A stretch of DNA of 64,000 bases from IMG/VR virus record IMGVR_UViG_2877251553_000001, positions 1 to 64,000 of that record; one strand, given 5' to 3'. The stretch comes from a virus. Taxonomy: Duplodnaviria > Heunggongvirae > Uroviricota > Caudoviricetes. Below, one piece after another: positions 1,369 through 50,068 of the stretch (positions are counted from its first letter, which is position 1; each line of letters opens with the position of its first letter). Under the pieces are notes generated by a model, which searched no databases, was not told the origin of the DNA, and saw only the letters and a program-made list of their open reading frames with translations. Both the position numbers and the translations under genes were made by a program.

Positions 1369-1444
1369 GCCGATATAGCTCAGTTGGTAGAGCAGCGCAT
1401 TCGTAATGCGAAGGTCGTAGGTTCGACTCCTATTATCGGCACCA
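1369..1444 (+). tRNA. thrW: tRNA-Thr (anticodon CGU)
   Basis: 76-nt cloverleaf-compatible sequence GCCGATATAGCTCAGTTGGTAGAGCAGCGCATTCGTAATGCG...GGCACCA with anticodon loop CATTCGTAATG (CGT); 3' CCA encoded. Confidence 0.9.
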
Positions 1445-1458
1445 TTTAAATCAATAAG

Positions 1459-21346: not shown

Positions 21347-21555
21347 ACCAGAATGATATCGAAGCCATGATTCAGCGTTATATGGAAGCTGAAATGGCGG
21401 TGCTGGACGGAAAATCCGTCACCTTTAATGGTCAGCAGATGACCATGGAAAACTTATCTGAGATCCGGCAGGGACGGCAGGAGTGGGAGCGCCGCCTTGC
21501 GGCTCTGATTACACGACGACGGGGGCATCCCGGGTACCGGCTGGCGAGGTTCTGA
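21337..21555 (+). CDS. head-tail joining protein (gpW-like)
   Basis: 72-aa ORF between terminase and portal; C-terminal RRRGHPGYRLARF resembles lambda gpW C-terminus. Confidence 0.55.
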   Translation: MVMNQNDIEAMIQRYMEAEMAVLDGKSVTFNGQQMTMENLSEIRQGRQEWERRLAALITRRRGHPGYRLARF

Positions 21556-23062: not shown

Positions 23063-23075
23063 TTCCTGGTTCAGG

Positions 23076-25033: not shown

Positions 25034-25055
25034 ACGTCGCAGACAACAACTCTGA

Positions 25056-25077
25056 TGGCCCGTAAGGGCTTTTTTTG
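25056..25077 (+). terminator. hairpin plus T-run after the capsid gene
   Basis: GGCCCGTAAGGGC followed by TTTTTTT. Confidence 0.4.
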
Positions 25078-25119
25078 TACCTGAAATCAGCCCCTGAACG
25101 GGGCTGTGCGGAGACAGTT

Positions 25120-25428
25120 ATGGCAAAGAATTTTGTAGAAGAAGGAAAAACGGTGGCGATTGTTGCCAGTGCAGCCATCAGCAGCGGAGACCTGGTGCAG
25201 GTGGGTGATGTTTTTGCGGTGGCGCTGACCGATATTCCACAGGGTGAAACAGGCGACGGCCTGACCGAAGGTGTGTTTATGCTGCCTAAGCTGAAAACGG
25301 ATGACATGAAAACGGGTAAGAAGGTTTATCTGAAGTCCGGAAAAGTTCAGCTGACTAACAGCGGCTCTGATCCGCTGGTCGGGTTGTCTGGGCAGATGCC
25401 GGAACCAGTGCAGAAGAAGTGCCGGTAA
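25120..25428 (+). CDS. hypothetical head-associated protein
   Basis: 102-aa ORF starting MAKNFVEEGK in the head module; family not securely recognised. Confidence 0.4.
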   Translation: MAKNFVEEGKTVAIVASAAISSGDLVQVGDVFAVALTDIPQGETGDGLTEGVFMLPKLKTDDMKTGKKVYLKSGKVQLTNSGSDPLVGLSGQMPEPVQKKCR

Positions 25429-25434
25429 AACTCA

Positions 25435-25710
25435 ATGTCTGATCCCTTTTCCCGGCTGGCAGCGCGTATGGATGCGATCACGGTCAGAAAGATGGGAAAG
25501 ACAGCCTCGATTAATGATGTCGATATGACTGTGATCCCGGGAGAAACACTGGCAGAGCTGAATGCTCTGTCCGGACCTGCGGTCTCTCTGGTGGTGTTTT
25601 CTTCGGGATACCGCCCACGGCGCGGGGATCGCGTTGTTTATGACGGACAACATTGGACGGTCACACGGCATGAACGCTTTAACGGTAAGCCAATGATCTT
25701 TATTGAGTAA
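25435..25710 (+). CDS. head-tail adaptor / head completion protein (putative)
   Basis: 91-aa ORF between capsid and tail genes. Confidence 0.4.
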   Translation: MSDPFSRLAARMDAITVRKMGKTASINDVDMTVIPGETLAELNALSGPAVSLVVFSSGYRPRRGDRVVYDGQHWTVTRHERFNGKPMIFIE

Positions 25711-25721
25711 AGAGGTGTGGG

Positions 25722-26300
25722 ATGAAGGGGCTTGAGAATGCCATCCGCAATCTGAACAGCCTTGATACCCGTATGGTGCCACAGGCCAGCGCATGGGCGA
25801 TAAACCGTGTGGCACAGAAAGCGGTCTCGGTTGCCACCCGGCAGGTTGCCGGGAATACCGTTGCGGGAGATAACCAGGTGAAAGGGATACCCCTGAAACT
25901 GGTACGTCAGCGTGTCCGGGTGTTTAAAGCCAGTCCGTCAGGAAAAATGACGGCCAGGATCCGCGTTAACCGGGGCAATCTGCCTGCCATTAAGCTGGGG
26001 ACCGCCCGGGTCAGACTGACCCGGCGTGGTGGAAAACTGCAGTACCGTGGCAGCGTGCTGAAGGTGGGTAAATATCTTTTCCGGGATGCGTTTATTCAGC
26101 AACTGGCGAATGGTCGCTGGCATGTGATGCGGCGTATTGATGGCAAAAATCGTTACCCCATTGATGTGGTGAAAATCCCTCTGTCCGGACCGCTGACACA
26201 GGCATTTGAAGATGCCCGCGACCGCATCATTGCTGCGGAAATGCCGAAACAGCTGGGGTATGCACTGAAACAACAACTGAGGTTATGGCTGACCCGATGA
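25722..26300 (+). CDS. tail completion protein (lambda gpZ-like by size and position)
   Basis: 192-aa ORF immediately upstream of the gpU-like gene, as in lambda. Confidence 0.5.
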   Translation: MKGLENAIRNLNSLDTRMVPQASAWAINRVAQKAVSVATRQVAGNTVAGDNQVKGIPLKLVRQRVRVFKASPSGKMTARIRVNRGNLPAIKLGTARVRLTRRGGKLQYRGSVLKVGKYLFRDAFIQQLANGRWHVMRRIDGKNRYPIDVVKIPLSGPLTQAFEDARDRIIAAEMPKQLGYALKQQLRLWLTR

Positions 26301-26698
26301 ACCGACATACACAAATCCGCCAGGTCGTACTGGCACGCCTTCGGGAACAGTGTGGAGACAGCGCCACGTTTTTTGACGGGCTTCCGGCATTTGTTGATGC
26401 GCAGGAACTGCCTGCCGTGGCGGTGTGGCTGAGTGATGCTCAGTACACCGGAAAAATGACGGATGAAGATGACTGGCAGGCTGTTCTGCATATTGCTGTC
26501 TTCATCCGGGCACAGGCACCGGATTCAGAGCTGGATATGTGGATGGAGAGCACCATTTTCCCGGCCCTGAATGATGTACCGGCACTTTCCGGACTCATCG
26601 ACACCCTGATCCCACTCGGTTTTAACTATCAACGTGATAATGAGATGGCCACCTGGGCGATGGCGGAAATCACGTACCAGATCACGTACACGAATTAA
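26285..26698 (+). CDS. tail terminator protein (lambda gpU-like)
   Basis: 137-aa; conserved stretches (ATFFDG...PAVAV...ELHI.VF...PDSELD.WMES) match remembered lambda gpU. Confidence 0.75.
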   Translation: MADPMNRHTQIRQVVLARLREQCGDSATFFDGLPAFVDAQELPAVAVWLSDAQYTGKMTDEDDWQAVLHIAVFIRAQAPDSELDMWMESTIFPALNDVPALSGLIDTLIPLGFNYQRDNEMATWAMAEITYQITYTN

Positions 26699-26708
26699 GG
26701 AGGTGGCA

Positions 26709-27452
26709 ATGACCACACCAAATCCACTGGCAAAAACGAAAGGTGCGGGAACGACGTTCTGGATGTACACCGGCAAGGGCGATGCGTTTGCGAACCCTTT
26801 ATCGGACACTGACTGGCTGCGTCTTGCGATGGTGAAGGATCTGCAGCCTGGCGAAATGACCGCTGATGCAGAAGATGACACTTATCTCGATGATGAAGAT
26901 GCAGACTGGAAAACGACAACCCAGGGGCAGAAATCCGTCGGTGATACTTCGGCGACGCTGGCCTGGCGTCCGGGTGACAGCGGGCAGAAAAAACTGGTTC
27001 AGTTGTTCGACTCCGGTGAAGTCTGCGCGTTTCGTATCAAATATCCCAACGGTACTGTTGATGTTTTCCGTGGCTGGCTGAGTTCACTGGGTAAAACCAT
27101 TGCCTCAAAAGACGTGATGACCCGCACAGTGAAAATCAGCGGTGTGGGGCGTCCGTATCTGGCAGAAGAAGGCACTGAAATCGTGGGCGTTACCGGGCTG
27201 ACGGTGGCACCGGCATCTGCCAGTGTAAAAGTGGGAGCAACCACCACGCTGACCTTTACAGTAAAACCTGACGGAGCCAGTGACAAAGCGATCAGTGTGC
27301 ATTCGACAGATCCACAGACTGCCACGGTGACCCTGAACGGGCTTGTGGCCACGGTGAAAGGCGTGAAGCAGGGCAGTGTCAGCATTGTGGGCATGACTTC
27401 TGACGGCGATTTTGTGGCAGTGGCTACGGTGGCTGTCAGCGCCGCAGGTTAA
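26709..27452 (+). CDS. major tail protein (lambda gpV-like) with C-terminal Ig-like domain
   Basis: Start MTTPNPLAKTKGAG; C-terminal Big_2-like region. Confidence 0.8.
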   Translation: MTTPNPLAKTKGAGTTFWMYTGKGDAFANPLSDTDWLRLAMVKDLQPGEMTADAEDDTYLDDEDADWKTTTQGQKSVGDTSATLAWRPGDSGQKKLVQLFDSGEVCAFRIKYPNGTVDVFRGWLSSLGKTIASKDVMTRTVKISGVGRPYLAEEGTEIVGVTGLTVAPASASVKVGATTTLTFTVKPDGASDKAISVHSTDPQTATVTLNGLVATVKGVKQGSVSIVGMTSDGDFVAVATVAVSAAG

Positions 27453-27512
27453 CAGGACGATACTCATCATTTGCCCCGATTATCCGGGGCTTTTTTGCAG
27501 GTGGAGAACATG

Positions 27513-27899
27513 ATGTTTCTGAAACAGGGCACGTTTAATTATGAAAAGCAGTCCGTGGTGCTCAGTGAGCTGTCCGGGCTGCAGAGAATTGAATATCTGG
27601 CGTTTGTTCAGCAGCGAACGGCAAAGTTTGATGCCGAAGAGGGAGAACTGCCGGAGGCTGAACGACAGATTGCTTTTCTGCGGATGGGGATGGATATCAA
27701 TGCCTGGCTGGTTTCCCGCTCACTGTGGAATGCGGATCAGTCTAAGGATGTAGAGACGCTTTGCGCATCCGTTATTACAACATGGTCGTATGATGCCCTG
27801 GGTGCGGGGGCGGAGATGGTTCTGTCGCTGAGCGGTATGGGGACCATTGATAATGCCGGGGATGATGAGCATGAGGCGCTGACGCCGGAAAAGTCCTGA
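27513..27899 (+). CDS. tail assembly chaperone G
   Basis: Starts MFLKQG like lambda gpG (MFLK...), immediately before the tape measure gene. Confidence 0.7.
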   Translation: MFLKQGTFNYEKQSVVLSELSGLQRIEYLAFVQQRTAKFDAEEGELPEAERQIAFLRMGMDINAWLVSRSLWNADQSKDVETLCASVITTWSYDALGAGAEMVLSLSGMGTIDNAGDDEHEALTPEKS

Positions 27900-28237
27900 C
27901 GCGGGAAATGCAGTTTGTCATGCGGCTTGCCCGGGAGTTCCGGCGGGCAGACTGGCGGCGGATGCTGTCGGAAATGTCGGCCACTGAGCTTGGTGAGTGG
28001 GGCGATTATTTCCGGATGCAGAGCTTCAGTGATGTGTGGATGGATGCGCAGTTTGCCTCGCTGAAGGCATTGATCGTGAGAATGGTGTCCGGCAGTAGTG
28101 ATGCTGCGGTGGCTGATTTCAGCCTTTTACCGGAAGAGAACGGGATACCGGAGCGAACGGACGAAGAACTGATGCATCTTGGGGAAGGTATTTCCGGAGG
28201 TGTGCGTTATGGACCAGATAGCCAACCTGGTCATTGA
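27513..28237 (+). CDS. tail assembly chaperone GT (product of -1 translational frameshift near the end of G)
   Basis: T-region ORF (27908-28237) is in the -1 frame relative to G and overlaps the tape measure start, as in lambda G-T. Confidence 0.55.
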
Positions 28238-31200
28238 TTTGGGGATTGATGCGGCAGAGTTTAAAAATGAAATCCCCCGTATCAAAAACCTTCTGAATGG
28301 TGCAGCCAGCGATGCAGAACGATCTTCTGCCCGTATGCAGCGTTTTATGGAGCGTCAGACTCAGGCCGCCCGGCAGACAACGCAGGCGGCTTCTTCGGCT
28401 GCAACAGCCGCATCCGTCCATGCGCAGACGGTGGAGAAGAACGCACAGGCTCATGAACGCATGGCCCGCGAGGTGGAGAAAACCCGCCAGCGCATGGAGG
28501 CGCTGAGCCAGAAAATGCGCGAGGAACAGGCGCAGGCCATGGCTCTGGCGGAGGCTCAGGATAAAACAGCTGCTGCGTTTTATCGTCAGATTGACAGTGT
28601 GAAACAGGCCAGTGCGGGGCTGCAGGAATTACAGCGTATTCAGCAGCAGATCCGACAGGCCAGAAACAGTGGCGGGATTGGTCAGCAGGATTATCTGGCG
28701 CTGATTTCTGAGGTTACGGCGAAAACCCGTGTTCTTACGCAGGCTGAGGAAGAGTCTACCCGACAGAAAGTGGCGTTTATCCGTCAGCTTAAAGAGCAGG
28801 CAACCCGCCAGAATCTTTCTTCTTCTGAGTTGCTTCGTGCCAGGGCTGCCCAGCTGGGGGTAAGCAGTGCTGCAGAAGTGTATATCCGCAAAATGGAGCA
28901 GGCAGGAAAAGCCACGCATTCGCTGGGTCTGAAAAGTGCAGCAGCCCGCCAGGAGATAGGCGTTCTGATAGGTGAACTGGCCCGTGGCAATTTAGGAGCG
29001 CTGAGGGGATCCGGGATAACGCTGGCTAACCGTGCCGGATGGATAGACACACTGATGTCACCGAAAGGCATGATGCTGGGCGGGGTTATTGGCGGTATTG
29101 CCGCGGCCGTCTATGGTCTGGGTAAAGCCTGGTATGACGGTCAGAAGGAGGGGGAAGAATTTAACCGCCAGCTGTCACTGACGGGGCATTATGCCGGAGT
29201 CACTGCCGGGCAGCTGTGGACGCTCAGTCGTGCTATTTCCGGGAATGGTATCACGCAACATGCTGCAGCCGGTGCGCTGGCTCAGGTGGTGGGGAGTGGT
29301 GCATTTCGTGGAAACGATATCGGTATGGTGGCGAGAGCTGCCGCACAGATGGAGCGATCGGTTGGCCAGTCGGTCAGCGATACCATAAATCAGTTTAAGC
29401 GGCTGAAGGATGATCCTGTAAATGCCGCGAAGGCTCTGGACAATGAGCTGCATTTTCTTACTGCCACTCAGCTTGAGCAGATACGCGTCCTTGGGGATCA
29501 GGGGCGGTCCAGTGATGCTGCACGGATAGCCATGTCTGCACTGGCAGAGGAAACCGGTCGGCGTACTGCGGATATTGATAATAACCTCAATGCGCTGGGC
29601 AGTACGCTGAAGTATCTGTCTGATTTATGGAATCGTTTCTGGGATGCGGCCATGAATATTGGTCGTGAAGACTCGCTGGATGAACAGATTGCCGCTTTAC
29701 AGGAGAAAGTGTCGCGGGCGAAAAGACTCCCCTGGACGGCATCATCTTCTCAGGTTGAATACGATCAGCAGCGTCTTAACGATCTTCAGGAGAAAAAACG
29801 CCAGAAGGATTTGCAGGATGCAAAAGAGCAGGCAGAGCGGAATTATCAGGAGCAACAGAAACGCCGTAATGCTGAAAATGCTGCACTGAACCGGATGAAT
29901 GAAACGGAAGCTGCACGACATCAGCGTGAAATTGCGCGTATTAATGCCATGCAGTACGCCGATCAGGCTGTCAGGGATGCGGCGATACAACGTGAAAATG
30001 AACGTTACGAGAAAGCCCTGGCATCCGGTAAGAAAAAAACACGCGAAACCCGTAATGATGAGGCCACCCGGTTATTGCTGCAGTACAGTCAGCAACAGGC
30101 ACAGGTGGAAGGACAGATTGCTGCTGCCAGACAGTCAGCAGGCATTGCCACGGAAAGGATGACAGAAGCGCATAAACAGCTTCTGGCTCTGCAGCAGCGC
30201 ATCAGCGACCTGGACGGGAAAAAACTGACGGCAGATGAAAAGAGTGTGCTGGCCCGTAAAGATGAACTGATTCAGGCACTGACGCTGCTGGATGTAAAAC
30301 AGCAGGAGCTTCAGAAACAGACGGCACTCAACGAGCTGAAGAAAAAAACAATTCAGCTGACCAGTCAACTGGCTGAAGAAGAGCGCGCTCAGCGTCAGCA
30401 ACATGACCTGGATATCGCCACGGTGGGTATGGGTGATCAGCAGCGACAGCGATATCAGGTACAACTGAGTCTTCGCCAGAAATACCAGCAACAGCTGGAG
30501 CAGTTGAGGCGGGATAGTGAGCAGAAAGGGACATATAACACGGATGACTACAGAAAGGCCGAGCAGGCGCTGACGGAGAGCCTGAACCGACAACTGAATG
30601 AGAATCGCCGTTACTGGCAACAGCTTGAAGTTGTGCAGGGTAACTGGAAAAACGGAGTCCTGCGTGCATTTCAGGATTTTACCGTGGATGCAGATAATAC
30701 GGCAGAAACAGCAGAACAGGTGTTCTCGTCAGCCTTCAGCAACATGGGAAATGGCCTGGCAACTTTTGTCACTACCGGCAAACTCAATTTCAAATCCTTC
30801 ACCTCTTCTGTGCTGTCAGATATGGCGAAAATCCTGGCGCAGGCAACCATGATGAAATCGATAAAAGGGATTGGCAGTGTACTGGGATTTGATCTCAGCA
30901 GCCTTTCCCTGAATGCCAATGGGGGGATTTATCAGTCTGCTGATTTGAGTCGTTACAGTGGCACGGTGGTTAACCGTCCGACGTTTTTTGCTTTTGCAAA
31001 AGGCGCGGGTGTGATGGGGGAAGCGGGACCTGAAGCCATTCTGCCATTGCGTCGTGGTGCTGACGGTAAGCTGGGGGTTGTGGCGGATATTGGGGGTTCA
31101 GGTATGGCGATGTTTTCCCCGCAGTACAACATCGAGATCAATAACGATGGCACGAACGGGCAGATAGGTCCGGCTGCCCTGAAGGCGGTTTATGACCTCG

Positions 31201-31274
31201 GGAAAAAAGCGGCAGCGGACTTTATGCAACAGCAGGCCCGTGATGGTGGTCGGTTAAGTGGAGCATATCGGTAA
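28209..31274 (+). CDS. tail tape measure protein (lambda gpH-like)
   Basis: About 1020 aa, coiled-coil-rich; C-terminus ...INNDGTNGQIGPAALKAVYD... matches remembered gpH C-terminus. Confidence 0.9.
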   Translation: MDQIANLVIDLGIDAAEFKNEIPRIKNLLNGAASDAERSSARMQRFMERQTQAARQTTQAASSAATAASVHAQTVEKNAQAHERMAREVEKTRQRMEALSQKMREEQAQAMALAEAQDKTAAAFYRQIDSVKQASAGLQELQRIQQQIRQARNSGGIGQQDYLALISEVTAKTRVLTQAEEESTRQKVAFIRQLKEQATRQNLSSSELLRARAAQLGVSSAAEVYIRKMEQAGKATHSLGLKSAAARQEIGVLIGELARGNLGALRGSGITLANRAGWIDTLMSPKGMMLGGVIGGIAAAVYGLGKAWYDGQKEGEEFNRQLSLTGHYAGVTAGQLWTLSRAISGNGITQHAAAGALAQVVGSGAFRGNDIGMVARAAAQMERSVGQSVSDTINQFKRLKDDPVNAAKALDNELHFLTATQLEQIRVLGDQGRSSDAARIAMSALAEETGRRTADIDNNLNALGSTLKYLSDLWNRFWDAAMNIGREDSLDEQIAALQEKVSRAKRLPWTASSSQVEYDQQRLNDLQEKKRQKDLQDAKEQAERNYQEQQKRRNAENAALNRMNETEAARHQREIARINAMQYADQAVRDAAIQRENERYEKALASGKKKTRETRNDEATRLLLQYSQQQAQVEGQIAAARQSAGIATERMTEAHKQLLALQQRISDLDGKKLTADEKSVLARKDELIQALTLLDVKQQELQKQTALNELKKKTIQLTSQLAEEERAQRQQHDLDIATVGMGDQQRQRYQVQLSLRQKYQQQLEQLRRDSEQKGTYNTDDYRKAEQALTESLNRQLNENRRYWQQLEVVQGNWKNGVLRAFQDFTVDADNTAETAEQVFSSAFSNMGNGLATFVTTGKLNFKSFTSSVLSDMAKILAQATMMKSIKGIGSVLGFDLSSLSLNANGGIYQSADLSRYSGTVVNRPTFFAFAKGAGVMGEAGPEAILPLRRGADGKLGVVADIGGSGMAMFSPQYNIEINNDGTNGQIGPAALKAVYDLGKKAAADFMQQQARDGGRLSGAYR

Positions 31275-31603
31275 TGGAGACGTTTCACTGGAAAGTGCGC
31301 CCGGATATGAATGTGGTATCAGAGCCGAAAGTGGTGACAGTGAAGCTGGGCGATGGTTATGAACAGCGTCGTGCGGCGGGACTGAATAACCAGTTGTCGA
31401 CTTACAGCGTGACGATACGTGTTCGTAAATGTGAACACCCATCTTTAAAAGCCTTTCTGGAACGGCACGGTGGCGTCCGTGCATTTCAGTGGACGCCACC
31501 TTATGACTGGAAACCGATCAGGGTGGTTTGTCGTAAATGGTCGGCAAGCGTGGGGGCGCTGTGGGTAACCATAACGGCAGATTTTGAACAGGTCGTGGCA
31601 TAG
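31274..31603 (+). CDS. minor tail protein M
   Basis: 109 aa, size and order as lambda gpM. Confidence 0.85.
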   Translation: METFHWKVRPDMNVVSEPKVVTVKLGDGYEQRRAAGLNNQLSTYSVTIRVRKCEHPSLKAFLERHGGVRAFQWTPPYDWKPIRVVCRKWSASVGALWVTITADFEQVVA

Positions 31604-31612
31604 GAGGCTCTG

Positions 31613-32311
31613 ATGCAGGATATTCCACAGGAAACACATCATGAGACGACACGCCTCACTCAGTCAGCCCAGGTGGTGCTCTGGGAAATCGATCTGACAG
31701 AGGTCGGTGGTGAACGTTATTTTTTCTGTAATGAGCAGAACGAAAAAGGTGAGCCGGTTACCTGGCAGGGGCGGCAGTATCAGGCATACCCCATTCAGGG
31801 GACAGGATTTGAACTGAACGGCAAGGGCAGTGCTGCCCGTCCGACACTGACGGTTTCTAACCTGCACGGTATGGTCACCGGGATGGCGGAAGATCTGCAG
31901 AGTCTGGTCGGCGGAACGGTGGTCCGGCGTAAGGTTTACGCCCGTTTTCTGGATGCGGTGAACTTCGTCAACGGAAACAGTGACGCCGACCCGGAGCAGG
32001 AGGTGATCAGCCGCTGGCGCATCGAGCAGTGCAGCGAACTGAGCGCGGTCAGTGCCTCTTTTGTACTGGCCACGCCGACGGAAACGGACGGCGCTGTTTT
32101 TCCGGGACGTATCATGCTGGCCAACACCTGCACCTGGACCTATCGCGGCGATGAGTGCGGTTATCACGGTCCGGCGGTCGCGGATGAATATGACCAGCCA
32201 ACGTCCGATATCACGAAGGATAAATGCAGCAAATGCCTGAGCGGTTGTAAGTTCCGCAATAACGTCGGCAACTTTGGCGGCTTCCTTTCCATTAACAAAC
32301 TTTCGCAGTAA
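31613..32311 (+). CDS. minor tail protein L
   Basis: 232 aa with Cys-rich C-terminus, as lambda gpL. Confidence 0.85.
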   Translation: MQDIPQETHHETTRLTQSAQVVLWEIDLTEVGGERYFFCNEQNEKGEPVTWQGRQYQAYPIQGTGFELNGKGSAARPTLTVSNLHGMVTGMAEDLQSLVGGTVVRRKVYARFLDAVNFVNGNSDADPEQEVISRWRIEQCSELSAVSASFVLATPTETDGAVFPGRIMLANTCTWTYRGDECGYHGPAVADEYDQPTSDITKDKCSKCLSGCKFRNNVGNFGGFLSINKLSQ

Positions 32312-32316
32312 ATCCC

Positions 32317-33060
32317 ATGACAGAAACAGAATCAGCGATTCTGGCGCACGCCCGGCGATGTGCGCCAGCGGAGTCGTGCGGCTTCGTGGTGAGAACGCCG
32401 GAGGGAGAAAGATATTTTCCCTGCGTGAATATCTCCGGTGAGCCGGAGGAGTATTTCCGGATGTCGCCGGAGGACTGGCTGCGGGCAGAAATGCAGGGTG
32501 AGATTGTGGCGCTGGTCCACAGCCACCCCGGTGGTCTGCCCTGGCTGAGTGAGGCTGACCGGCGGCTGCAGGTGCAGAGTGATTTGCCGTGGTGGCTGGT
32601 CTGCCGGGGTGAGATTCATAAATTCCGCTGTGTGCCGCATCTCACCGGGCGGCGCTTTGAGCACGGGGTGACGGACTGTTACACGCTGTTCCGGGATGCT
32701 TACCATCTGGCGGGGATTGAGATGCCGGATTTTCATCGCGGGGATGACTGGTGGCGTAACGGTCAGAATCTCTATCTGGATAATCTGGAGGCCACAGGGC
32801 TGTATCAGGTGCCGTTGTCAGCGGCGCAGCCGGGCGATGTGCTGCTGTGCTGTTTTGGTTCATCGGTGCCGAATCATGCCGCTATTTACTGCGGCGACGG
32901 CGAGCTGCTGCACCATATTCCTGAACAACTGAGCAAACGAGAGAGGTATACCGACAAATGGCAGCGACGCACACACTCCCTCTGGCGTCACCGGGCATGG
33001 CACGCATCTGCCTTTACGGGGATTTGCAACGATTTGGCCGCCGCATCGACCTTCGTGTGA
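32317..33060 (+). CDS. tail assembly protein K (MPN/JAB plus NlpC/P60-type domains)
   Basis: HSHP motif and Cys/His peptidase-like region, as lambda gpK. Confidence 0.85.
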   Translation: MTETESAILAHARRCAPAESCGFVVRTPEGERYFPCVNISGEPEEYFRMSPEDWLRAEMQGEIVALVHSHPGGLPWLSEADRRLQVQSDLPWWLVCRGEIHKFRCVPHLTGRRFEHGVTDCYTLFRDAYHLAGIEMPDFHRGDDWWRNGQNLYLDNLEATGLYQVPLSAAQPGDVLLCCFGSSVPNHAAIYCGDGELLHHIPEQLSKRERYTDKWQRRTHSLWRHRAWHASAFTGICNDLAAASTFV

Positions 33061-33605
33061 AAACGGGGGCCGAAGCCATCCGGGCGCTGGCCACACAGCT
33101 CCCGGCGTTTCGTCAGAAACTGAATGACGGCTGGTATCAGGTGCGCATTGCCGGGCGTGATGCAGGTGAAACCGAATTATCTGCCCGTCTTAATGAGCCG
33201 CTGGCAAATGGTGCCGTGATCCATATCGTGCCGCGTCTGGCGGGAGCTAAAAGTGGCGGTGTGTTTCAGGTGGTGCTGGGGGCGGCGTTGATTGCGGTGG
33301 CATGGTGGAACCCTGTGGGCTGGCTGGGTGCCGCGGCTGTATCGGGCATGTATGCGGCAGGGGCCAGTATGATCCTGGGCGGTGTGGCGCAGATGCTGGC
33401 ACCGAAAGCCAGGACGTCCACGGCAGCCAGTACAGATAACGGCAAACAGAACACCTATTTTTCCTCACTGGATAACATGGTTGCTCAGGGCAATGTTTTG
33501 CCTGTTCTGTACGGTGAAATGCGTGTGGGGTCGCGGGTGGTTTCTCAGGAGATCAGCACGGCAGACGAAGGGGACGGTGGTCAGGTTGTGGTGATTGGTC
33601 GCTGA
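32958..33605 (+). CDS. tail assembly protein I
   Basis: Matches remembered lambda gpI (MAATHTLPLASPGMARICLYGDLQRFG...); overlaps K as in lambda. Confidence 0.85.
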   Translation: MAATHTLPLASPGMARICLYGDLQRFGRRIDLRVKTGAEAIRALATQLPAFRQKLNDGWYQVRIAGRDAGETELSARLNEPLANGAVIHIVPRLAGAKSGGVFQVVLGAALIAVAWWNPVGWLGAAAVSGMYAAGASMILGGVAQMLAPKARTSTAASTDNGKQNTYFSSLDNMVAQGNVLPVLYGEMRVGSRVVSQEISTADEGDGGQVVVIGR

Positions 33606-33665
33606 TGCAAAATGTTTTATGTGAAACCGCCTCCGGGCGGTTTTGTCGTTTATGGAGCATGACGA

Positions 33666-37063
<3,398 letters not shown>

Positions 37064-37129
37064 ATTTTATAACCCAGAACGGGCGCCAGAAATGACGCCT
37101 TTTTTATTGCAGAAAAGCGAGAGGTAATT

Positions 37130-37726
37130 ATGCGTAAAGTTTGTGCAGCAATTTTGTCCGCAGCCATTTGTCTGGCCGTATCCGGTGCGCCTGCATGGGC
37201 GTCTGAACATCAGTCCACGCTGAGCGCGGGTATCTTCATGCCTCGACGAACGTCCCCGGCAGTGATGATCTGAACGGGATTAACATGAAATACCGTTATG
37301 AGTTTACGGACACACTGGGGCTGGTGACGTCATTCAGCTATGCAGGAGACAAGAATCGCCAGCTGACCCGTTACAGCGATACCCGCTGGCATGAAGATTC
37401 CGTTCGTAACCGCTGGTTCAGCGTAATGGCGGGCCGTCTGTGCGCGTGAATGAATGGTTCAGCGCGTATGCGATGGCGGGTGTAGCTTACAGCCGTGTGT
37501 CGACTTTCTCCGGGGATTATCTTCGCGTAACTGACAACAAGGGGAAAAAGCACGATGTGCTGACCGGAAGTGATGACGGTCGCCACAGCAACACGTCTCT
37601 GGCGTGGGGGCTGGCGTGCAGTTTAACCCGACCGAATCCGTGTCCATTGATATTGCTTATGAAGGCTCCGGCAGTGGTGACTGGCGCACTGACGGTTTCA
37701 TCGTGGGTGTCGGTTATAAATTCTGA
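37130..37726 (+). CDS. lom: outer membrane protein Lom; reading frame interrupted several times
   Basis: N-terminus MRKVCAAILSAAICLAVSGAPAWASEHQSTLSAG and internal segments match remembered lambda Lom; several single-base gaps in homopolymers break the frame. Confidence 0.7.
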
Positions 37727-37789: not shown

Positions 37790-40700
37790 ATGGCAGTAAA
37801 GATTTCAGGTGTACTGAAAGACGGCACAGGAAAACCGGTACAGAACTGCACAATCCAGCTGAAAGCAAAACGTAACAGCACCACGGTGGTGGTGAACACG
37901 CTGGCCTCAGAAAATCCGGATGAAGCCGGGCGTTACAGCATGGACGTTGAGTACGGGCAGTACAGCGTTATTCTGTTGGTGGAGGGATTCCCGCCGTCAC
38001 ATGCCGGGACCATCACCGTGTATGAAGATTCCCGACCCGGTACGCTGAATGATTTTCTCGGTGCCATGACGGAGGATGATGCCCGTCCTGAGGCACTGCG
38101 CCGTTTTGAACTGATGGTGGAAGAGGTGGCGCGTAACGCGTCCGCGGTGGCACAGAACACGGCAGCCGCGAAGAAGTCAGCCAGTGATGCCAGCACATCA
38201 GCCCGTGAGGCGGCAACCCATGCGACTGATGCTGCAGGCTCAGCACGCGCAGCCAGCACATCAGCCGGGCAGGCCGCGACGTCGGCTCAGTCAGCGTCTT
38301 CCAGCGCAGGAACGGCATCAACAAAGGCCACTGAAGCCTCAAAAAGTGCTGCCGCTGCAGAGTCCTCAAAAAGCGCGGCAGCTACCAGTGCCGGTGCGGC
38401 GAAAACGTCAGAAACGAATGCGGCAGCGTCACAAAAATCTGCAGCCACTTCTGCATCCGCAGCGACCACAAAGGCGTCAGAAGCTGCCACCTCAGCCCGG
38501 GATGCGGCGGCCTCAAAAGAGGCAGCGAAATCATCAGAAACGAACGCATCATCAAGCGCCAGTAGTGCCGCTTCCTCGGCAACGGCGGCAGGAAATTCCG
38601 CGAAGGCGGCAAAAACGTCCGAGACGAACGCCAGGTCTTCTGAAACGGCAGCGGGACAGAGTGCCTCAGCTGCGGCAGGCTCAAAAACAGCGGCTGCATC
38701 ATCTGCCAGTGCCGCATCAACAAGTGCCGGGCAGGCCTCAGCCAGTGCCACCGCTGCCGGAAAGTCGGCAGAAAGTGCCGCATCGTCTGCTTCAACAGCC
38801 ACAACGAAGGCTGGCGAAGCCACTGAACAGGCCAGCGCAGCAGCGAGGTCAGCTTCCGCAGCGAAGACATCCGAAACGAACGCGAAAGCGTCGGAAACCC
38901 GTGCAGAATCCTCAAAAACGGCTGCCGCATCGTCAGCCAGTTCGGCGGCGTCATCGGCATCATCGGCGTCTGCTTCAAAAGATGAGGCGACCAGACAGGC
39001 GTCAGCAGCGAAGGGCAGCGCCACGACAGCATCCACGAAGGCGACAGAGGCAGCTGGCAGTGCGACGGCGGCAGCACAGAGCAAAAGTACGGCGGAATCC
39101 GCGGCAACGCGCGCTGAGACAGCGGCAAAACGTGCAGAGGATATTGCATCCGCCGTGGCGCTTGAGGATGCGAGCACGACGAAAAAGGGGGTAGTACAGC
39201 TCAGCAGTGCGACCAACAGCACGTCTGAAACGCTGGCGGCAACGCCAAAGGCAGTAAAAGCAGCCTATGACAATGCAGAGAAACGTCTGCAGAAAGACCA
39301 GAACGGTGCTGATATTCCCGACAAGGACCGCTTCCTGAGTAACATTAATGTTTACAGCAAAGGTGAAGTGGATCAGAAAAAGGGGATGCGATACGTTGTG
39401 GTAAATGCCCCGGCGGGTGTCCAGGAAGGTAAATATTATCCGTTAGTGATAAAAAGGAATGACAGCCATCGAGCATCCCGCGTTGTCATTTCAACGCCAA
39501 GGCGCACAGCTAATCACAGAATGAATAACTGTGAGTTTAATGGTTTTGTTTGCACAGGCGGCTGGACGGACCGGGGTAGCTATGCCTGTGGTATGTTCTG
39601 GGCTTATTCATCATCGGAACGCGCTATTCATTCCATTCTGATGAGTAATAAAGGCGATACCGTAGACAGCGTATTCTATATAGAAGGTGGGGCATTTCCC
39701 GTAGAGGTTTTTTTAGAAGAAGGACTCTCCGTTACTGCACCTGCTTCTGATTATGTTGTTGCTGAAACAACTTATAAATTTGGTGCAACTGATCCTTATT
39801 CTGAATCAGTTGCTGTAAATTTAATTTTAGATTTTAAACAAGGTAATGGATTTTATAGTTCGTATCCTGTTTTGAGTAAGTCAGATATTAGCGGGAATAA
39901 GATTTACGCTAATGATGAAGTTATTGTCCGTAGTCAGAACGCGTTAAGGATGATTGCAGGCGATTACGGTGTCATATGGCGAAATGATGGAGCAAATACT
40001 TACTTGCTCATGACTGATAAAGGCGACCAGTACGGTGGCTGGAACGGTCTTCGACCATTTGCTGTAAATAACGCAACAGGTGAAGTGACGATCAATACAC
40101 CACTTAATTCGCCTAAGGGATTAAGGGAAATTCTGATACAGCTACGAAACTTCAGACAGCAATAAAAATATCTGGTGTTTCGTTTGATGGTTCTACTGAT
40201 ATCACTTTAACCGCTGCGCATGTTGCTGCTTTTGCCAGAAGAGCAACGGATACGTATGCCGATGCGGATGGGGCGTTCCCTGGAATGCCGAATCAGGCGC
40301 TTATAATGTCACCCGCTCTGGCGACAGCTATATTCTGGTTAACTTCTATACCGGAGTCGGAAGTTGCCGGACCTTGCAGATGAAGGCGCATTACAGAAAT
40401 GGTGGTCTGTTCTACCGTTCTTCAAGAGACGGTTATGGTTTTGAGGAAGACTGGGCAGAAGTTTATACCTCGAAAAATCTTCCACCAGAAAGCTACCCAG
40501 TCGGCGCACCAATCCCGTGGCCATCAGATACCGTTCCGTCTGGTTATGCCCTGATGCAGGGGCAGACTTTTGACAAATCTGCTTACCCGAAACTTGCAGC
40601 TGCTTATCCGTCAGGCGTGATCCCTGATATGCGTGGCTGGATGATTAAGGGCAAGCCCGCCAGTGGTCGAGCCATATTGTCTCAGGAACAGGACGGCATT

Positions 40701-40988
40701 AAATCGCACACCCACAGCGCCAGCGCATCCAGTACGGATTTGGGTACGAAAACCACATCGTCGTTTGATTACGGCACTAAATCCACGAATAACACCGGGG
40801 CGCATACCCATAGTGTTAGCGGTACGGCTGCTTCAGCCGGTGCACATACCCATTCGATGACATTTGTTTCAGGTGGTTCCAGTGGTGCTCCGGGAAGTGG
40901 ATCACCTGATTATTCTAAATACAGTGTTAACACTTCTTCTGCAGGCGCTCATACGCACTCTGTATCGGGTACTGCTGCAAGCGCAGGT
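37790..40988 (+). pseudogene. stf: side tail fibre (Stf-like), 5' portion; interrupted by IS2 and by frameshifts near 40165 and 40270
   Basis: Ala/Ser/Thr-rich repeats then GAHTHS-type repeats; ORF pieces 37790-40165 and 40374-40991 plus read-through frames. Confidence 0.75.
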
Positions 40989-42317
40989 TAGACTGGCCCC
41001 TGAATCTCCAGACAACCAGTATCACTTAAATAAGTGATAGTCTTAATACTAGTTTTTAGACTAGTCATTGGAGTACAGATGATTGATGTCTTAGGGCCGG
41101 AGAAACGCAGACGGCGTACCACACAGGAAAAGATCGCAATTGTTCAGCAGAGCTTTGAACCGGGGATGACGGTCTCCCTAGTTGCCCGGCAACATGGTGT
41201 AGCAGCCAGCCAGTTATTTCTCTGGCGTAAGCAATACCAGGAAGGAAGTCTTACTGCTGTGGCCGCCGGAGAACAGGTTGTTCCTGCCTCTGAACTTGCT
41301 GCCGCCATGAAGCAGATTAAAGAACTCCAGCGCCTGCTCGGCAAGAAAACGATGGAAAATGAACTCCTCAAAGAAGCCGTTGAATATGGACGGGCAAAAA
41401 AGTGGATAGCGCACGCGCCCTTATTGCCCGGGGATGGGAGTAAGCTTAGTCAGCCGTTGTCTCCGGATGTCGCGTGCGCAGTTGCACGTCATTCTCAGAC
41501 GAACCGATGACTGGATGGATGGCCGCCGCAGTCGTCACACTGATGATACGGATGTGCTTCTCCGTATACACCATGTTATCGGAGAGCTGCCCACGTATGG
41601 TTATCGTCGGGTATGGGCGCTGCTTCGCAGACAGGCAGAACTTGATGGTATGCCTGCGATCAATGCCAAACGTGTTTACCGGATCATGCGCCAGAATGCG
41701 CTGTTGCTTGAGCGAAAACCTGCTGTACCGCCATCGAAACGGGCACATACAGGCAGAGTGGCCGTGAAAGAAAGCAATCAGCGATGGTGCTCTGACGGGT
41801 TCGAGTTCTGCTGTGATAACGGAGAGAGACTGCGTGTCACGTTCGCGCTGGACTGCTGTGATCGTGAGGCACTGCACTGGGCGGTGACTACCGGCGGCTT
41901 CAACAGTGAAACAGTACAGGACGTCATGCTGGGAGCGGTGGAACGCCGCTTCGGCAACGATCTTCCGTCGTCTCCAGTGGAGTGGCTGACGGATAATGGT
42001 TCATGCTACCGGGCTAATGAAACACGCCAGTTCGCCCGGATGTTGGGACTTGAACCGAAGAACACGGCGGTGCGGAGTCCGGAGAGTAACGGAATAGCAG
42101 AGAGCTTCGTGAAAACGATAAAGCGTGACTACATCAGTATCATGCCCAAACCAGACGGGTTAACGGCAGCAAAGAACCTTGCAGAGGCGTTCGAGCATTA
42201 TAACGAATGGCATCCGCATAGTGCGCTGGGTTATCGCTCGCCACGGGAATATCTGCGGCAGCGGGCTTGTAATGGGTTAAGTGATAACAGATGTCTGGAA
42301 ATATAGGGGCAAATCCA
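40989..42317 (+). mobile_element. IS2 insertion sequence (1329 bp here) with 5-bp target duplication CAGGT
   Basis: Ends TAGACTGGCCCC... and ...GGGGCAAATCCA; CAGGT at 40984-40988 and 42318-42322. Confidence 0.9.
41079..42306 (+). CDS. insCD: IS2 transposase InsC/InsD (orfA/orfB)
   Basis: [26 protein letters not shown]... (InsC) and DDE transposase InsD recognised from memory; one missing G in a G-run near 41430 removes the InsC stop. Confidence 0.85.
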
Positions 42318-42469
42318 CAGGTGCACACGCACATACTGTCGGTATTGGTGCTCATACGCACTCCGTTGCGATTGGTTCACATGGACATACCATCACCGTT
42401 AACGCTGCTGGTAACGCGGAAAACACCGTCAAAAACATCGCATTTAACTATATTGTGAGGCTTGCATAA
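42318..42469 (+). pseudogene. stf: side tail fibre 3' remnant
   Basis: ...[50 protein letters not shown] continues the GAHTHS repeats after IS2. Confidence 0.7.
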
Positions 42470-43051
42470 TGGCATTCAGAATGAGTGAACAACCACGGAC
42501 CATAAAAATTTATAATCTGCTGGCCGGAACTAATGAATTTATTGGTGAAGGTGACGCATATATTCCGCCTCATACAGGTCTGCCAGCAAACAGTACCGAT
42601 ATTGCACCGCCAGATATTCCGGCAGGCTTCGTGGCTGTTTTCAACAGTGATGAGGCATCGTGGCATCTCGTTGAAGATCATCGGGGTAAAACGGTTTATG
42701 ACGTGGCTTCCGGCGACGCGTTATTTATTTCTGAACTCGGTCCGTTACCGGAAAATGCCACTTGGTTATCCCGGAAGGGAGTTTCAGAAGTGGAACGGCA
42801 CAGCCTGGGTGAAAGATGCAGAAGCAGAAAAACTGTTCCGGATCCGGGAGGCGGAAGAAACAAAAAACAGCCTGATGCAGGTAGCCAGTGAGCATATTGC
42901 GCCACTTCAGGATGCTGTAGATCTGGAAATCGCAACGGAGGAAGAAACCTCATTGCTGGAAGCCTGGAAAAAGTATCGGGTGTTGCTGAACCGTGTTGAT
43001 ACATCAACTGCACCGGATATTGAGTGGCCAGAAGAACCAGACACCGTGTAA
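42469..43051 (+). CDS. tfa: tail fibre assembly protein Tfa; -1 net frameshift near 42770-42790
   Basis: N-terminus [31 protein letters not shown]... and C-terminus ...[24 protein letters not shown] match remembered lambda Tfa. Confidence 0.8.
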
Positions 43052-43112: not shown

Positions 43113-43936
<824 letters not shown>

Positions 43937-44297
43937 TCATTGCAAGGGCTCACAACCAGTAGTGTTGAGAAAACCATCGGAGAAATGAGGCTAAGCCTTT
44001 GAATTTACATAGTACAAAAAAGATACTTTTCCTCATAATGTGAGCTAATTTTATGTTTCGTTTGATGATTGGACCGGTCTCGAAAACCGTAGACACATAG
44101 TATGCGTTAATTTATGAACAAACTACTTGTCTGCTGTTTTTCTGTCATTAGTCGTATATAGAATGATTCTCTATGCCTAACAAAGCATCACCAGTGCTAG
44201 ATTACGTTGTAGTCACTGTTTAAATATCCAGATAAAACATTTCCTTCTGGGTTGAATGAGTGATAAAGTTTCACCCATTAGACCCCTTGGAGGAATT

Positions 44298-45730
44298 ATG
44301 TCTGAATTTGAAGTGTTGGCACAGCATCTGCTGAAGGAAGCCGAGGCGGAAGAAAAGCTGCGACAGGAAAATGATAAAAAGCTTATCGAGAAAGTGCTGG
44401 AAATCTATGATCAGAAGTATGTGGCTGAATTACTGAGAAAAGTCGGAAAAAATGAGTGGAGCCGTGAAACCATTAACCGCTGGATTAATGGCAAGTGTTT
44501 ACCAAAATCGTTGACTTCAGTAGAAGAGTCTCTTCTGCGTAAGATGCTACCAGAACCACCTGCAAACCATCCGGAATATGCTTTCCGCTTCATTGACTTA
44601 TTTGCTGGAATTGGAGGGATACGGAAAGGTTTTGAGGCCATTGGAGGCCAGTGTGTTTTTACCAGTGAATGGAATAAAGATGCTGTGCGTACATACAAGG
44701 CCAACTGGTTTAACGATGAACAGGTGCATAAATTCAATCTCGATATTCGGGAAGTCACGCTGAGTGATAAAACCGATGTATTGGAAACGGATGCTTATGC
44801 ATATATTGATGAGCATGTGCCGGATCATGATGTGCTTCTTGCGGGGTTCCCGTGCCAGCCATTTAGCCTTGCTGGTGTTAGTAAGAAAAACTCACTTGGT
44901 CGTGCGCATGGTTTTGAATGTGAAGCACAAGGAACACTTTTTTTTGACGTGGCACGTATTATACGAGCAAAAAAACCGGCAATTTTTGTGCTGGAAAATG
45001 TCAAAAATCTGAAGAGCCATGATAAGGGTAAAACTTTCAAAGTCATTATGGAGACCCTTGACGAGCTGGGCTACGAAGTTGCCGATGCTGCAGAAATGGG
45101 AAAAAACGATCCAAAGATTATCGATGGGAAGCATTTTTTGCCTCAGCATCGTGAACGCATTGTTCTGGTCGGATTTAGACGAGATCTGAATATTCACAAG
45201 GGGTTTACCTTGCGTGATATCAGTCGTTTTTATCCGGAACACCGCCCATCATTTGGTGAATTGCTGGAGCCTGTAGTCGACAGTAAATATATACTTACGC
45301 CAAAACTATGGGAGTACCTTTATAACTACGCCAAAAAGCATGCAGCCAAGGGGAATGGTTTTGGCTTTGGGTTGGTCAATCCTGAGAATAAGGAAAGCAT
45401 TGCACGCACACTTTCTGCCAGATATCACAAAGACGGATCAGAAATTCTTATTGATCGTGGTTGGGATATGGCAACGGGAGAGGCTGACTTTATGAATGAG
45501 AGTAATCAGGCTCGTCGACCACGCAGGCTGACTCCCGAGAGTGCGCACGCCTTATGGGATTTGAAAAACCTGGAGGGAAACCATTCCGTATTCCGGTTTC
45601 AGATACTCAGTCATATCGGCAGTTCGGTAACTCAGTTGTGGTGCCAGTATTTGAAGCTGTTGCCAGACTTCTGGAACCCTATATCCTCAAAGCTGTTTCT
45701 GCTGATGCTGGTAAGACTGGGCAGCCTTGA
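44298..45730 (+). CDS. DNA cytosine-5 methyltransferase (Dcm / M.EcoRII-like, CCWGG-type); -1 frameshift at a C-run near 45533
   Basis: Strong resemblance to remembered E. coli Dcm ([14 protein letters not shown]...GFPCQPFS...ENVKNL...[15 protein letters not shown]); restoring one C gives a Dcm-like C-terminus. Confidence 0.85.
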
Positions 45731-45764
45731 GAACATCTCCCGGCCTTTTAAGCCGGGAGTCAGC

Positions 45765-46979
45765 CTATGATAGTTCAGCGTAAAGCTCTATCAGCTCAGT
45801 AATGAATGCTCCGAGCGTTATTAATTCTTCTCTAACTGCTTCTGGGTATTTTTTATGTAAAGTTGATGGTACAACGAGTCTGACACCCGCATCTTTCATT
45901 TCTCGGTATTGTGCTGAAGAAACACCTTCTTGCAGTGTAAATAAATGTACCTGATGGATTTTATCTGCTTCATTCAGTATCTGACGCCAGCGATCTTTGC
46001 AGGTGGTCTTTACTGCCAGCATACGTAAGTTTTCTACAGGAAATTCAACGTTATGATATGCCTCTGCTGAAGGAAACAGGAAATCTGGTTTTTTATTACC
46101 TTCAGTAACTGCCTGAGTGGAGAAATGCCGTAGTCCGTGCTCGATAAAAAGCTTCTCTAGGTGAAGTTCAAGTGATTTGCCTGCCCTTGATTTACGTCGA
46201 TTACTGACAGAGTTGGCTAATGCAATAAACTCATCTACAGAATCGAATCCTTTCTTAATAATATCAAGAACATGTAATTCCTCGACGAGTAGAAAAATAT
46301 CATACTCGACACGCCGACGGTCAATCAGTTGCTCATCTGGATCCTTGGAGTTTTTAGCATAATGGCCAGCAGCATATTGAATAATTTCGTTTCCAGAAGG
46401 AAAACGCTTCTTCCAGTCTTCAGGAATAACATATTTATGATTTACTGGAGTTTGCTGAAGAGACAATCCGCCCAAAATTTGTCCGGCAGGGCCGGAAATT
46501 AGGGTTCCAGGTATGATTTCGCCAATAGCAGACTCGATGATATCCTCTTCATCGGGATTGACGCAGACCCATATATCTACCTCGGAACAGTCAGTGTTCT
46601 GTTCGTTTAACCTGAAAGCAAGAATTGTGAGGGCTCCTGTATTTTCAGGGTTCTGTAATGGACTTCCTCTCCCCCAGCGCGTAATTCTTTTTTCGTTTCG
46701 GGTCTTACCAAAATAACGGTTGTTGTAATAAATTGCGCGTGCTTGGGTATCAGGGCAATCATGGGATGATACATGCGCAGTAAGGAAGACTGAAGGGTTC
46801 AGTTCGCGAGTATGATTGATAGATGGAAAAAGCTTTTCAACGATATTTGAGGGGATATAAAGTCCGACCTGATGGCCACCTGTTGCGCCTGTGTCGTTTG
46901 CAGAAAGGCGTTTGATGTAGATAAAGTAATTCCCGCTTGCGATATCAAGCAGCCAGTTATGAAAAACCGACATATACAT
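45765..46979 (-). CDS. type II restriction endonuclease, EcoRII-like (CCWGG)
   Basis: 404-aa ORF convergent with the Dcm-like gene; N-terminus (M)[25 protein letters not shown] matches remembered R.EcoRII. Confidence 0.8.
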
Positions 46980-48641: not shown

Positions 48642-48687
48642 AATTCGTAATGCGAAGGTCGTAGGTTCGACTCCTATTATCGGCACC
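48642..48687 (+). repeat. 46-bp direct repeat of the thrW 3' end (prophage attR / island attL core)
   Basis: Identical to 1399-1444 (ATTCGTAATGCGAAGGTCGTAGGTTCGACTCCTATTATCGGCACCA). Confidence 0.85.
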
Positions 48688-48853
48688 ATTCAAACATCTC
48701 CCCAAGTCTACTAAAGTCTTTCAAAACCCCTTATAATCCGCGTATTAAAGCCCCGTTCGTCTTTTGACGCCTACTAAAGTCCCTCAAAATCTACGGTCAG
48801 ATGGGGGTACTTATGGGGGTATTTGCTGTTCGGTTTAGTGGAGGTACCCCCAA

Positions 48854-50068
48854 GTGAAACTCAATGCCCGTCAAATAGACACAGCCAAGCCAAAAGAGAA
48901 GGCTTACAAGCTGGCCGATGGTGGCGGTTTGTATCTCTTGGTAAAACCTAATGGAGGTAAATACTGGCGACTTAAATATCGTGTAGCTGGTAAAGAGAAG
49001 CTATTGGCACTAGGTGTGTATCCTGAGGTTACTCTAGCCGATGCTCGGGCAAAACGTGAAGATGCGAAAAGAGGTATCGCTGGTGGTATCGATCCGATGG
49101 AAGCGAAACGAGAGGAAAAGATTGCCCGGGAAACGCAGTTAAACAACACCTTCAAAGATATTGCCCTTGAGTGGCACAGCAGCAAATTAAAAAAATGGTC
49201 TGCTGGTTATGCTTCAGACATCCTCGAAGCCTTCAACAAAGATGTGTTCCCTTACATTGGCAAAAAACCAATCGCCGAAATCAAACCACTTGAACTTCTG
49301 AATGTGCTGCGGCGCATCGAGGGGCGCGGTGCTACAGAAAAAGCCAAAAAAGTGAGGCAGCGGTGCGGGGAAGTTTTCCGCTATGCAATAGTCACTGGTC
49401 GCGCAGAGTATAACCCTGCACCAGACCTTACTAGCGCGATGCAAGGCCATGAATCTAATCATTACCCTTTCCTTACAGCTAAAGAATTACCTGATTTTTT
49501 CAAGGCATTGTCCAGTTACTCAGGAAGCGCATTGGTTGTTATGGCGGCTCGTCTACTGATTATCATCGGCTTGCGGACTGGCGAACTACGTGGCGCATTA
49601 TGGGATGAAATTGATTTCAACAAGGCTATCTGGGAGATACCCGCTTCACGTATGAAAATGCGGCGGCCTCATATTGTGCCATTGTCTGATCAGGCTCTTT
49701 CGCTTATTGGGAAGATTAGAGAAATAACAGGCAATTACCCTCTTATGTTTCCCGGGCGCAATGATCCAAGGAAAACAATGAGTGAGGCCAGCATAAACCA
49801 AGTGTTTAAGCGCATTGGCTACGCTGGACGTGTAACTGGTCATGGGTTCCGGCACACTATGAGCACGATTTTGCATGAGCAGGGCTATAACACCGCGTGG
49901 ATAGAAACGCAGCTCGCTCACGTTGATAAGAACTCAATTCGTGGCACATACAACCATGCGCAATATCTGGATGGAAGGCGGGAGATGCTTCAATGGTATG
50001 CCGACTATATGGATGCGCTGGAGAAGGAGGAGAACGTTGTTCATGGTTCGTTTGGGAAACGAGCTTAA
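48854..50068 (+). CDS. P4-family integrase
   Basis: 404-aa tyrosine recombinase with P4-int-like N-terminus (MKLNARQIDTAKPKEKAYKLADGGGLYLLVKPNGGKYWRLKY); GTG start; just downstream of the tRNA repeat. Confidence 0.9.
   Translation: MKLNARQIDTAKPKEKAYKLADGGGLYLLVKPNGGKYWRLKYRVAGKEKLLALGVYPEVTLADARAKREDAKRGIAGGIDPMEAKREEKIARETQLNNTFKDIALEWHSSKLKKWSAGYASDILEAFNKDVFPYIGKKPIAEIKPLELLNVLRRIEGRGATEKAKKVRQRCGEVFRYAIVTGRAEYNPAPDLTSAMQGHESNHYPFLTAKELPDFFKALSSYSGSALVVMAARLLIIIGLRTGELRGALWDEIDFNKAIWEIPASRMKMRRPHIVPLSDQALSLIGKIREITGNYPLMFPGRNDPRKTMSEASINQVFKRIGYAGRVTGHGFRHTMSTILHEQGYNTAWIETQLAHVDKNSIRGTYNHAQYLDGRREMLQWYADYMDALEKEENVVHGSFGKRA

Follow-up and report, generated by a model that had tools for sequence, protein, structure and literature searches.

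IS2 insertion into the side tail fibre gene of a thrW-integrated lambda-like prophage, with predicted loss of a functional fibre tip

The window, a stretch of 64,000 nucleotides, starts with proA followed by thrW. It belongs to the chromosome deposited as GenBank CP026825.1 (assembly GCA_002949915.1, 4.70 Mb), the sole contig for which the exact 203-aa product of the truncated stf is recorded, and the locus retrieved is contained in the window without any difference. Since the start of this protein is set by an upstream homopolymer error, the look-up carries no information on sister assemblies. The accession gave no hits in a literature search. A lambdoid prophage of ~47 kb is integrated at thrW between two att repeats (Table 1). 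Its tail genes are arranged in the order J, lom, stf and tfa. This is the lambda arrangement, and the genes are annotated likewise in three relatives. Within the window, Ail_Lom is matched upstream of stf and Caudo_TAP_N downstream of it. The N-terminus of Stf matches the complete Pfam model phage_tail_N (PF08400; E 9.4e-72, model positions 1-134 of 134), and Gp34_trimer also matches. Domain content and gene order thus identify a lambda-type stf, as proposed in a preliminary description that had named the disrupted gene a side tail fibre gene. The late region is 99.8% identical to that of an E. coli O25b:H4 prophage over 18700-37700 and 99.3% identical over 17467-39271, and the late genes of that prophage are all annotated as intact.

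Table 1. Coordinates of the prophage boundaries, the interrupted stf gene and the inserted element
Feature	Position	Strand	Remarks
thrW, tRNA-Thr (CGT)	1369-1444		attL lies in its 3' half
attL, 48-bp direct repeat	1399-1446	+	in 3' half of thrW, next to integrase
Prophage tyrosine integrase	1459-2622	-	adjoins attL
stf 5' part (side tail fibre gene)	37790-40991	+	ATG at 37790 (MAVKISG...); TAG at 40989-40991 supplied by IS2
Target-site duplication, left CAGGT	40984-40988	.	5 bp
IS2 insertion sequence	40989-42317	+	orfA and orfB codirectional with stf; 1329 bp as written against 1331 bp in the reference
IRL, TAGACTGGCCCC...	40989-41029	+	C5 run reads C4 at 40996
orfA (InsC / IS2 repressor)	41079-41510	+	143 aa as written; canonical 121 aa with G restored at 41435
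A6G slippery sequence, programmed -1 frameshift to OrfAB	41396-41402	+	from sequence; mechanism PMC3299598
orfB (InsD, catalytic part of transposase)	41434-42306	+	Pfam rve and HTH_21 on called gene
IRR, ...GGGGCAAATCCA	42277-42317	+	inverted-repeat arms and terminal sequence
Target-site duplication, right CAGGT	42318-42322	.	5 bp, perfect copy of left
stf 3' remnant, stranded	42323-42469	+	48 codons and TAA; aligns to C-terminus of T4 gp37 tip, PDB 2XGF
tfa (tail fibre assembly gene)	42469-43051	+	ATG overlaps stf stop; Pfam Caudo_TAP_N; annotation in relatives
attR, second copy of 48-bp repeat	48643-48690	+	far end of prophage

The stf gene is itself a mosaic. Together, lom and the 5' ~1.6 kb of stf, which make up the first ~2.35 kb of a query running from 37000 onward, are ~95% identical to strain 789. 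Homology is then lost until the last ~600 bp of stf. The similarity to phage PhiR30_1 extends to ~40818 and does not include the last segment. The stretch 38900-40988 is covered in one piece by only ~144 genomes.

By each sequence criterion tested, the element that interrupts stf is IS2 of the IS3 family. The 1329 bp between the two CAGGT copies align at full length and with 99.7% identity to annotated IS2 elements of 1331 bp, which carry the annotation 'IS3-like element IS2 family transposase'. The termini read TAGACTGG... on the left and ...AAATCCA on the right, and the inverted-repeat arms at 40991-41029 and 42277-42315 comprise 39 nt each and are 77% complementary. In the definition of IS2, IRL has 42 bp and IRR 41 bp, the two are imperfect repeats, and IRR ends CA-3' (PMC3299598); IRR ends CA-3' here as well. 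The NCBIfam models for the IS2 repressor TnpA (274 bits, cut-off 229) and the IS2 transposase TnpB (697 bits, cut-off 597) both score above their cut-offs. The element shares with IS2 of Escherichia coli the imperfect repeats (TA... and ...CA), the orfA/orfB pair, the A6G sequence and the 5-bp duplication. It differs by four changes. Two are private substitutions, a C>A change at 41180 that is synonymous in orfA and a G>A change at 41467 that replaces Val by Met near the start of orfB. The other two are 1-bp deletions, C5>C4 in IRL (40996) and G4>G3 (41435). Among 5,426 complete E. coli genomes, in which the closest IS2 copies are 99.7% identical, none has an IS2 with both substitutions, and the pair might serve as a marker of a lineage-specific IS2 variant.

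IS2 transposes by a copy-out-paste-in pathway through a figure-of-eight and a minicircle, with IRR as the donor end and with OrfAB produced by a -1 frameshift (PMC3299598). As written, this copy lacks a G at 41435, which terminates its OrfAB at codon 121. With this one G put back, OrfA has 121 aa and OrfAB 409 aa, and the IS2 copy is therefore probably intact. The G deletion at 41435 is probably a sequencing error. A broken orfAB would be hard to reconcile with a recent autonomous jump of this IS2 unless the break is such an error.

The borders of the insertion can be given to the base. On the left side, the stf reading frame GCA AGC GCA GGT is followed directly by TAGACTGGCCCC... (40984-40999), and on the right side ...GGGGCAAATCCA is followed by CAGGT GCA CAC (42306-42328). 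A duplication of 5 bp at the target is the standard footprint of IS2. The preliminary description had placed an IS2 with a CAGGT duplication at 40984-42322, which is exact and spans the locus from duplication to duplication. It had also put about 48 codons of stf beyond the element, and the exact count is 48 codons, followed by the stop. When IS2 is taken out in silico together with one CAGGT copy, the 3' end of stf is back in frame up to its stop codon. When a 967-nt construct of this empty site is compared with the 5,426 complete E. coli genomes, 3,629 of them match it without interruption, at 99.1% identity in the best case; the genes there carry the annotations prophage tail fibre and tail fibre assembly protein. 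The 41-nt span across the empty site, with a single CAGGT, is present as an exact match in two other E. coli prophages, those of strain 789 and of an O25b:H4 strain. Comparison with uninterrupted stf genes of related prophages, which had been suggested as a check, thus retrieves the empty site. In the alignment of the restored stf with the intact stf of strain 2EC1 (1115 aa), there is no indel at the junction. The chance probability of a 5-bp flanking match taken by itself is ~1 in 1,024. Chance is excluded by the combination of this match with the exact contiguity of the flanks in other genomes.

The joint between stf and IS2 was searched for in several collections. A query across the left junction finds no such joint among the 5,426 complete E. 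coli genomes, and the tail-fibre match stops at 40988. The junction was not found in GTDB species representatives, IMG/VR or JGI metagenomes either. This absence, together with the many 1-bp homopolymer undercalls of the assembly and the multicopy nature of IS2, could be taken to indicate that a repeated IS2 copy was misplaced into stf during assembly and that the real gene is intact. IS2-like sequence is present in 4,753 of the 5,426 complete E. coli genomes, at a median of 3 and up to 41 places per genome. However, a misjoin would not yield a perfect 5-bp duplication around a complete element that ends at its inverted repeats, nor would its flanks, when brought together, give an in-frame sequence with exact matches in other genomes. 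Homopolymer undercalls are, moreover, a different class of error. We therefore consider an assembly artefact highly improbable. We conclude that the insertion is a genuine transposition event, so far seen in this genome only. It may be confined to a fraction of the culture that was sequenced, or may stem from laboratory passage.

Several genes of the prophage are split as written, namely those for terminase, portal, capsid, J, lom, stf and tfa, and IS2 orfAB is split as well. Compared with relatives that are 97-99.8% identical, the indels of the prophage are 1-bp deletions in runs of at least four G or C; there are no insertions and none of the deletions lies in A/T runs. They are located at 9297, 10009, 18416, 19795, 22137, 24307, 25380, 34986, 37227, 37430, 37605 and 37785, within stf at 40116 and 40269, within IS2 at 40996 and 41435, and within tfa at 42770-42776. 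The two deletions in stf distribute the gene as written over three frames. They are the only two indels relative to the intact stf of strain 2EC1, and both are found in G runs. The alignment with the O25b:H4 prophage (21.8 kb, 99.3% identity) contains ten indels, each of them the loss of a single base in the window from a G run of at least four. This restriction to G/C runs is far from random, since the reference stretch holds 195 A/T runs of this length and 114 G/C runs. A strand bias towards G, with ten out of ten deletions in G runs, is not significant (p ~0.15) because the reference has 94 G runs and 20 C runs; deletions in C runs are found elsewhere (9297, 40996).

Judged from this pattern, the deletions most likely represent consensus undercalling, at about one per 2 kb, and not gene decay. 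The reading follows from their single direction and single context in DNA that is otherwise 98-99.8% identical to intact relatives. Such a spectrum of homopolymer undercalls is typical of early long-read assemblies. If the deletions at 40116 and 40269 were genuine, stf would have been a pseudogene in a decaying prophage already, and IS2 would have landed in dead DNA without being the cause of the loss. The sequence as written is compatible with this, as stf has two frame breaks upstream of IS2 and terminase, portal, capsid, J, lom and tfa are split too. Yet every break is a 1-bp deletion in a G/C run of at least four; insertions are absent, and neither the 195 A/T runs nor the sequence outside runs is affected. 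Natural decay does not give so uniform a spectrum. In addition, substitutions relative to the intact prophage amount to only 0.2-0.7%, and IS2 itself carries two deletions of the same type. A pseudogene that preceded the insertion is thus very unlikely, if somewhat less so than an assembly artefact. An insertion with a target duplication cannot arise by consensus error, and the IS2 lesion is therefore separate from the homopolymer shifts. The earlier distinction between a real lesion and the homopolymer shifts is borne out, given that the shifts are without exception 1-bp deletions in G/C runs relative to near-identical relatives. One genuine lesion, IS2 in stf, can be told apart from some eighteen apparent frameshifts, for which sequencing error is the most likely cause. 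For annotation this means that the prophage should not be written off as heavily decayed, as undercalls of this kind would inflate the pseudogene count of an assembly.

With the reading frame of stf restored, the effect of IS2 on the protein can be described. The stop codon TAG consists of the first three bases of IS2, and the truncated Stf ends in ...TAASAG. The insertion lies in the last 5% of the gene and deprives Stf of exactly 48 C-terminal residues. The C-terminal 215 aa of restored Stf align to the T4 gp37 tip (PDB 2XGF) end to end with E 5.6e-89, collinear to the last residue, and the last 15 residues are identical. Pfam Collar and Phage_fibre repeat models match the C-terminus once it is restored. 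The 48 residues absent from the product of the interrupted gene correspond to ~979-1026 of gp37, provided that the 242-residue chain of 2XGF ends at residue 1026. Seven HxH motifs are present in the restored tip, as in gp37, and three of them lie beyond IS2 together with the C-terminal strand. In contrast to these shared features, the central head segment, which in gp37 governs receptor specificity, is divergent in Stf, and the N-terminal 850 residues of Stf are lambda-Stf-like and not gp37-like.

Along the gp37 needle, seven iron atoms are coordinated by HxH histidines. These histidines are described as critical for both folding and function, and no plaques form when single ones are replaced by alanine (PMC6957217). 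By analogy, the fibre tip of the prophage would be an interdigitated trimer in which each chain extends to the head domain and then returns, and the truncation would remove the return strand. A chain without its return strand should fail to fold, which would leave virions without functional side fibres. A folded tip from truncated Stf appears very unlikely on this comparison, since the lost part holds three of the seven HxH motifs and the C-terminal strand. One could still envisage that truncated Stf is functional or altered in specificity, since the ascending needle strand and the variable head region are still present; the equivalent of the specificity segment of gp37 (932-965) is encoded upstream of the insertion and is thus preserved. 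However, the descending strand with its three HxH motifs interdigitates with the ascending strand in the gp37 tip, and in gp37 the exchange of a single iron-binding histidine for alanine is sufficient to abolish plaque formation. Across the fibre family, conserved flanks (812-931 and 966-1026) border the specificity region (PMC9659904), and the flank 966-1026, common to the family, is the one affected here. We give a functional truncated fibre very little credence. The earlier proposal that side tail fibres are probably not made is a sound one, as the lost segment corresponds to the descending half of a gp37-type needle plus the C-terminal strand.

The insertion also separates stf from tfa. 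The stop codon of stf and the start codon of tfa overlap in TAATG at 42467-42471, and any translational coupling between the two genes would therefore be broken. The tfa gene as written is split by one or two 1-bp G-run deletions (~42770-42776). An outward hybrid promoter for tfa at the right end of IS2 was not detected, since a promoter scan of 40800-42600 gave no plus-strand site and a single minus-strand hit, within chance expectation. A frame of 62 codons at 42281-42469 opens with a GTG inside the right end of IS2, continues in phase through the stf remnant and closes at the stf stop. It has probably arisen by chance; its translation, if it occurs, could re-establish the coupling to tfa.

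Further cargo is found downstream of tfa. A gene for a LEM-3-like GIY-YIG domain protein is located at 43113-43763 on the minus strand. It holds the same position in strain 2EC1, and other relatives carry a YbcY-like methyltransferase there, so that this appears to be a variable cargo slot. Between tfa and attR, the prophage carries an EcoRII-like restriction-modification pair (44256-46979), composed of a Dcm-like cytosine methylase on the plus strand (NCBIfam PRK10458, 810 bits) and a convergent EcoRII endonuclease on the minus strand (Pfam EcoRII-N and EcoRII-C). The match of the methylase frame to PRK10458 (472 positions) ends at position 419, beyond which the frame continues into the endonuclease gene; a further homopolymer error may be responsible. 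Directly after attR follows a second integrase of P4 type (48854-50068), and after it an island rich in insertion sequences with transposases of the IS110, IS66 and IS3 families. Judging by this arrangement, two elements seem to have integrated in tandem at thrW. None of the complete E. coli genomes searched has the region 48643-64000 in contiguous form.

Taken as a whole, the locus is best explained by transposition of IS2 into stf, which gives a Stf without its last 48 residues and a phage without functional side fibres, and we hold this explanation with high confidence. In the proposed event, one IS2 would have transposed into codon 1067/1068 of the ~1115-codon stf of the thrW-integrated lambda-like prophage. 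The sequence shows the identity and limits of the element, the duplication, the frame regained when the element is removed and the homology of the lost segment. From these we infer the failure of the truncated fibre to fold, the effect on tfa and the phenotype, and for the loss of fibre function the homology to gp37 is the basis.

Laboratory lambda (PaPa) has a frameshift in stf, is viable and infects via J and LamB (PMC9659904). Side tail fibres can thus be regarded as accessory, and little can therefore be concluded from the insertion about viability or domestication. Adsorption via J, as in laboratory lambda, would still be open to the phage, and the expected effect would be slower or narrower adsorption and not lost viability. 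Domestication had been raised as a possible meaning of the lesion, and of this we find no sign. The prophage retains both att sites and the integrase, and once the artefact-like shifts are set aside, its late genes are almost identical to their counterparts in intact prophages.

Because IS2 sits exactly between two CAGGT copies, its precise excision would restore an intact stf. Excision of IS3-family elements is reported to be aided by an IS-excision enhancer (IEE). It is conceivable that the insertion acts as a reversible switch, in which excision restores stf and lysogens might release both fibre-less and fibred virions, but we rate this as extremely improbable.

Insertions of IS elements into prophage genes are commonplace. 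The insertion described here involves a known element and a familiar type of lesion, and it introduces no new mechanism or family. The virions predicted from it, without side fibres, would have a phenotype that is familiar from laboratory lambda. As in stf of lambda PaPa when compared with Ur-lambda, an inactivating lesion affects the side fibre of a lambdoid phage, and infection mediated by J is expected to be spared. The lambda fibre also shares with the present one a T4 gp37-like tip and a tfa chaperone gene downstream (PMC9659904). The lesions themselves differ. In lambda PaPa, a 1-bp frameshift splits stf into orf401 and orf314, whereas the prophage gene is interrupted by IS2 at 48 codons from its end. 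Unlike the lambda PaPa lesion, the IS2 insertion would in principle be reversible by precise excision.
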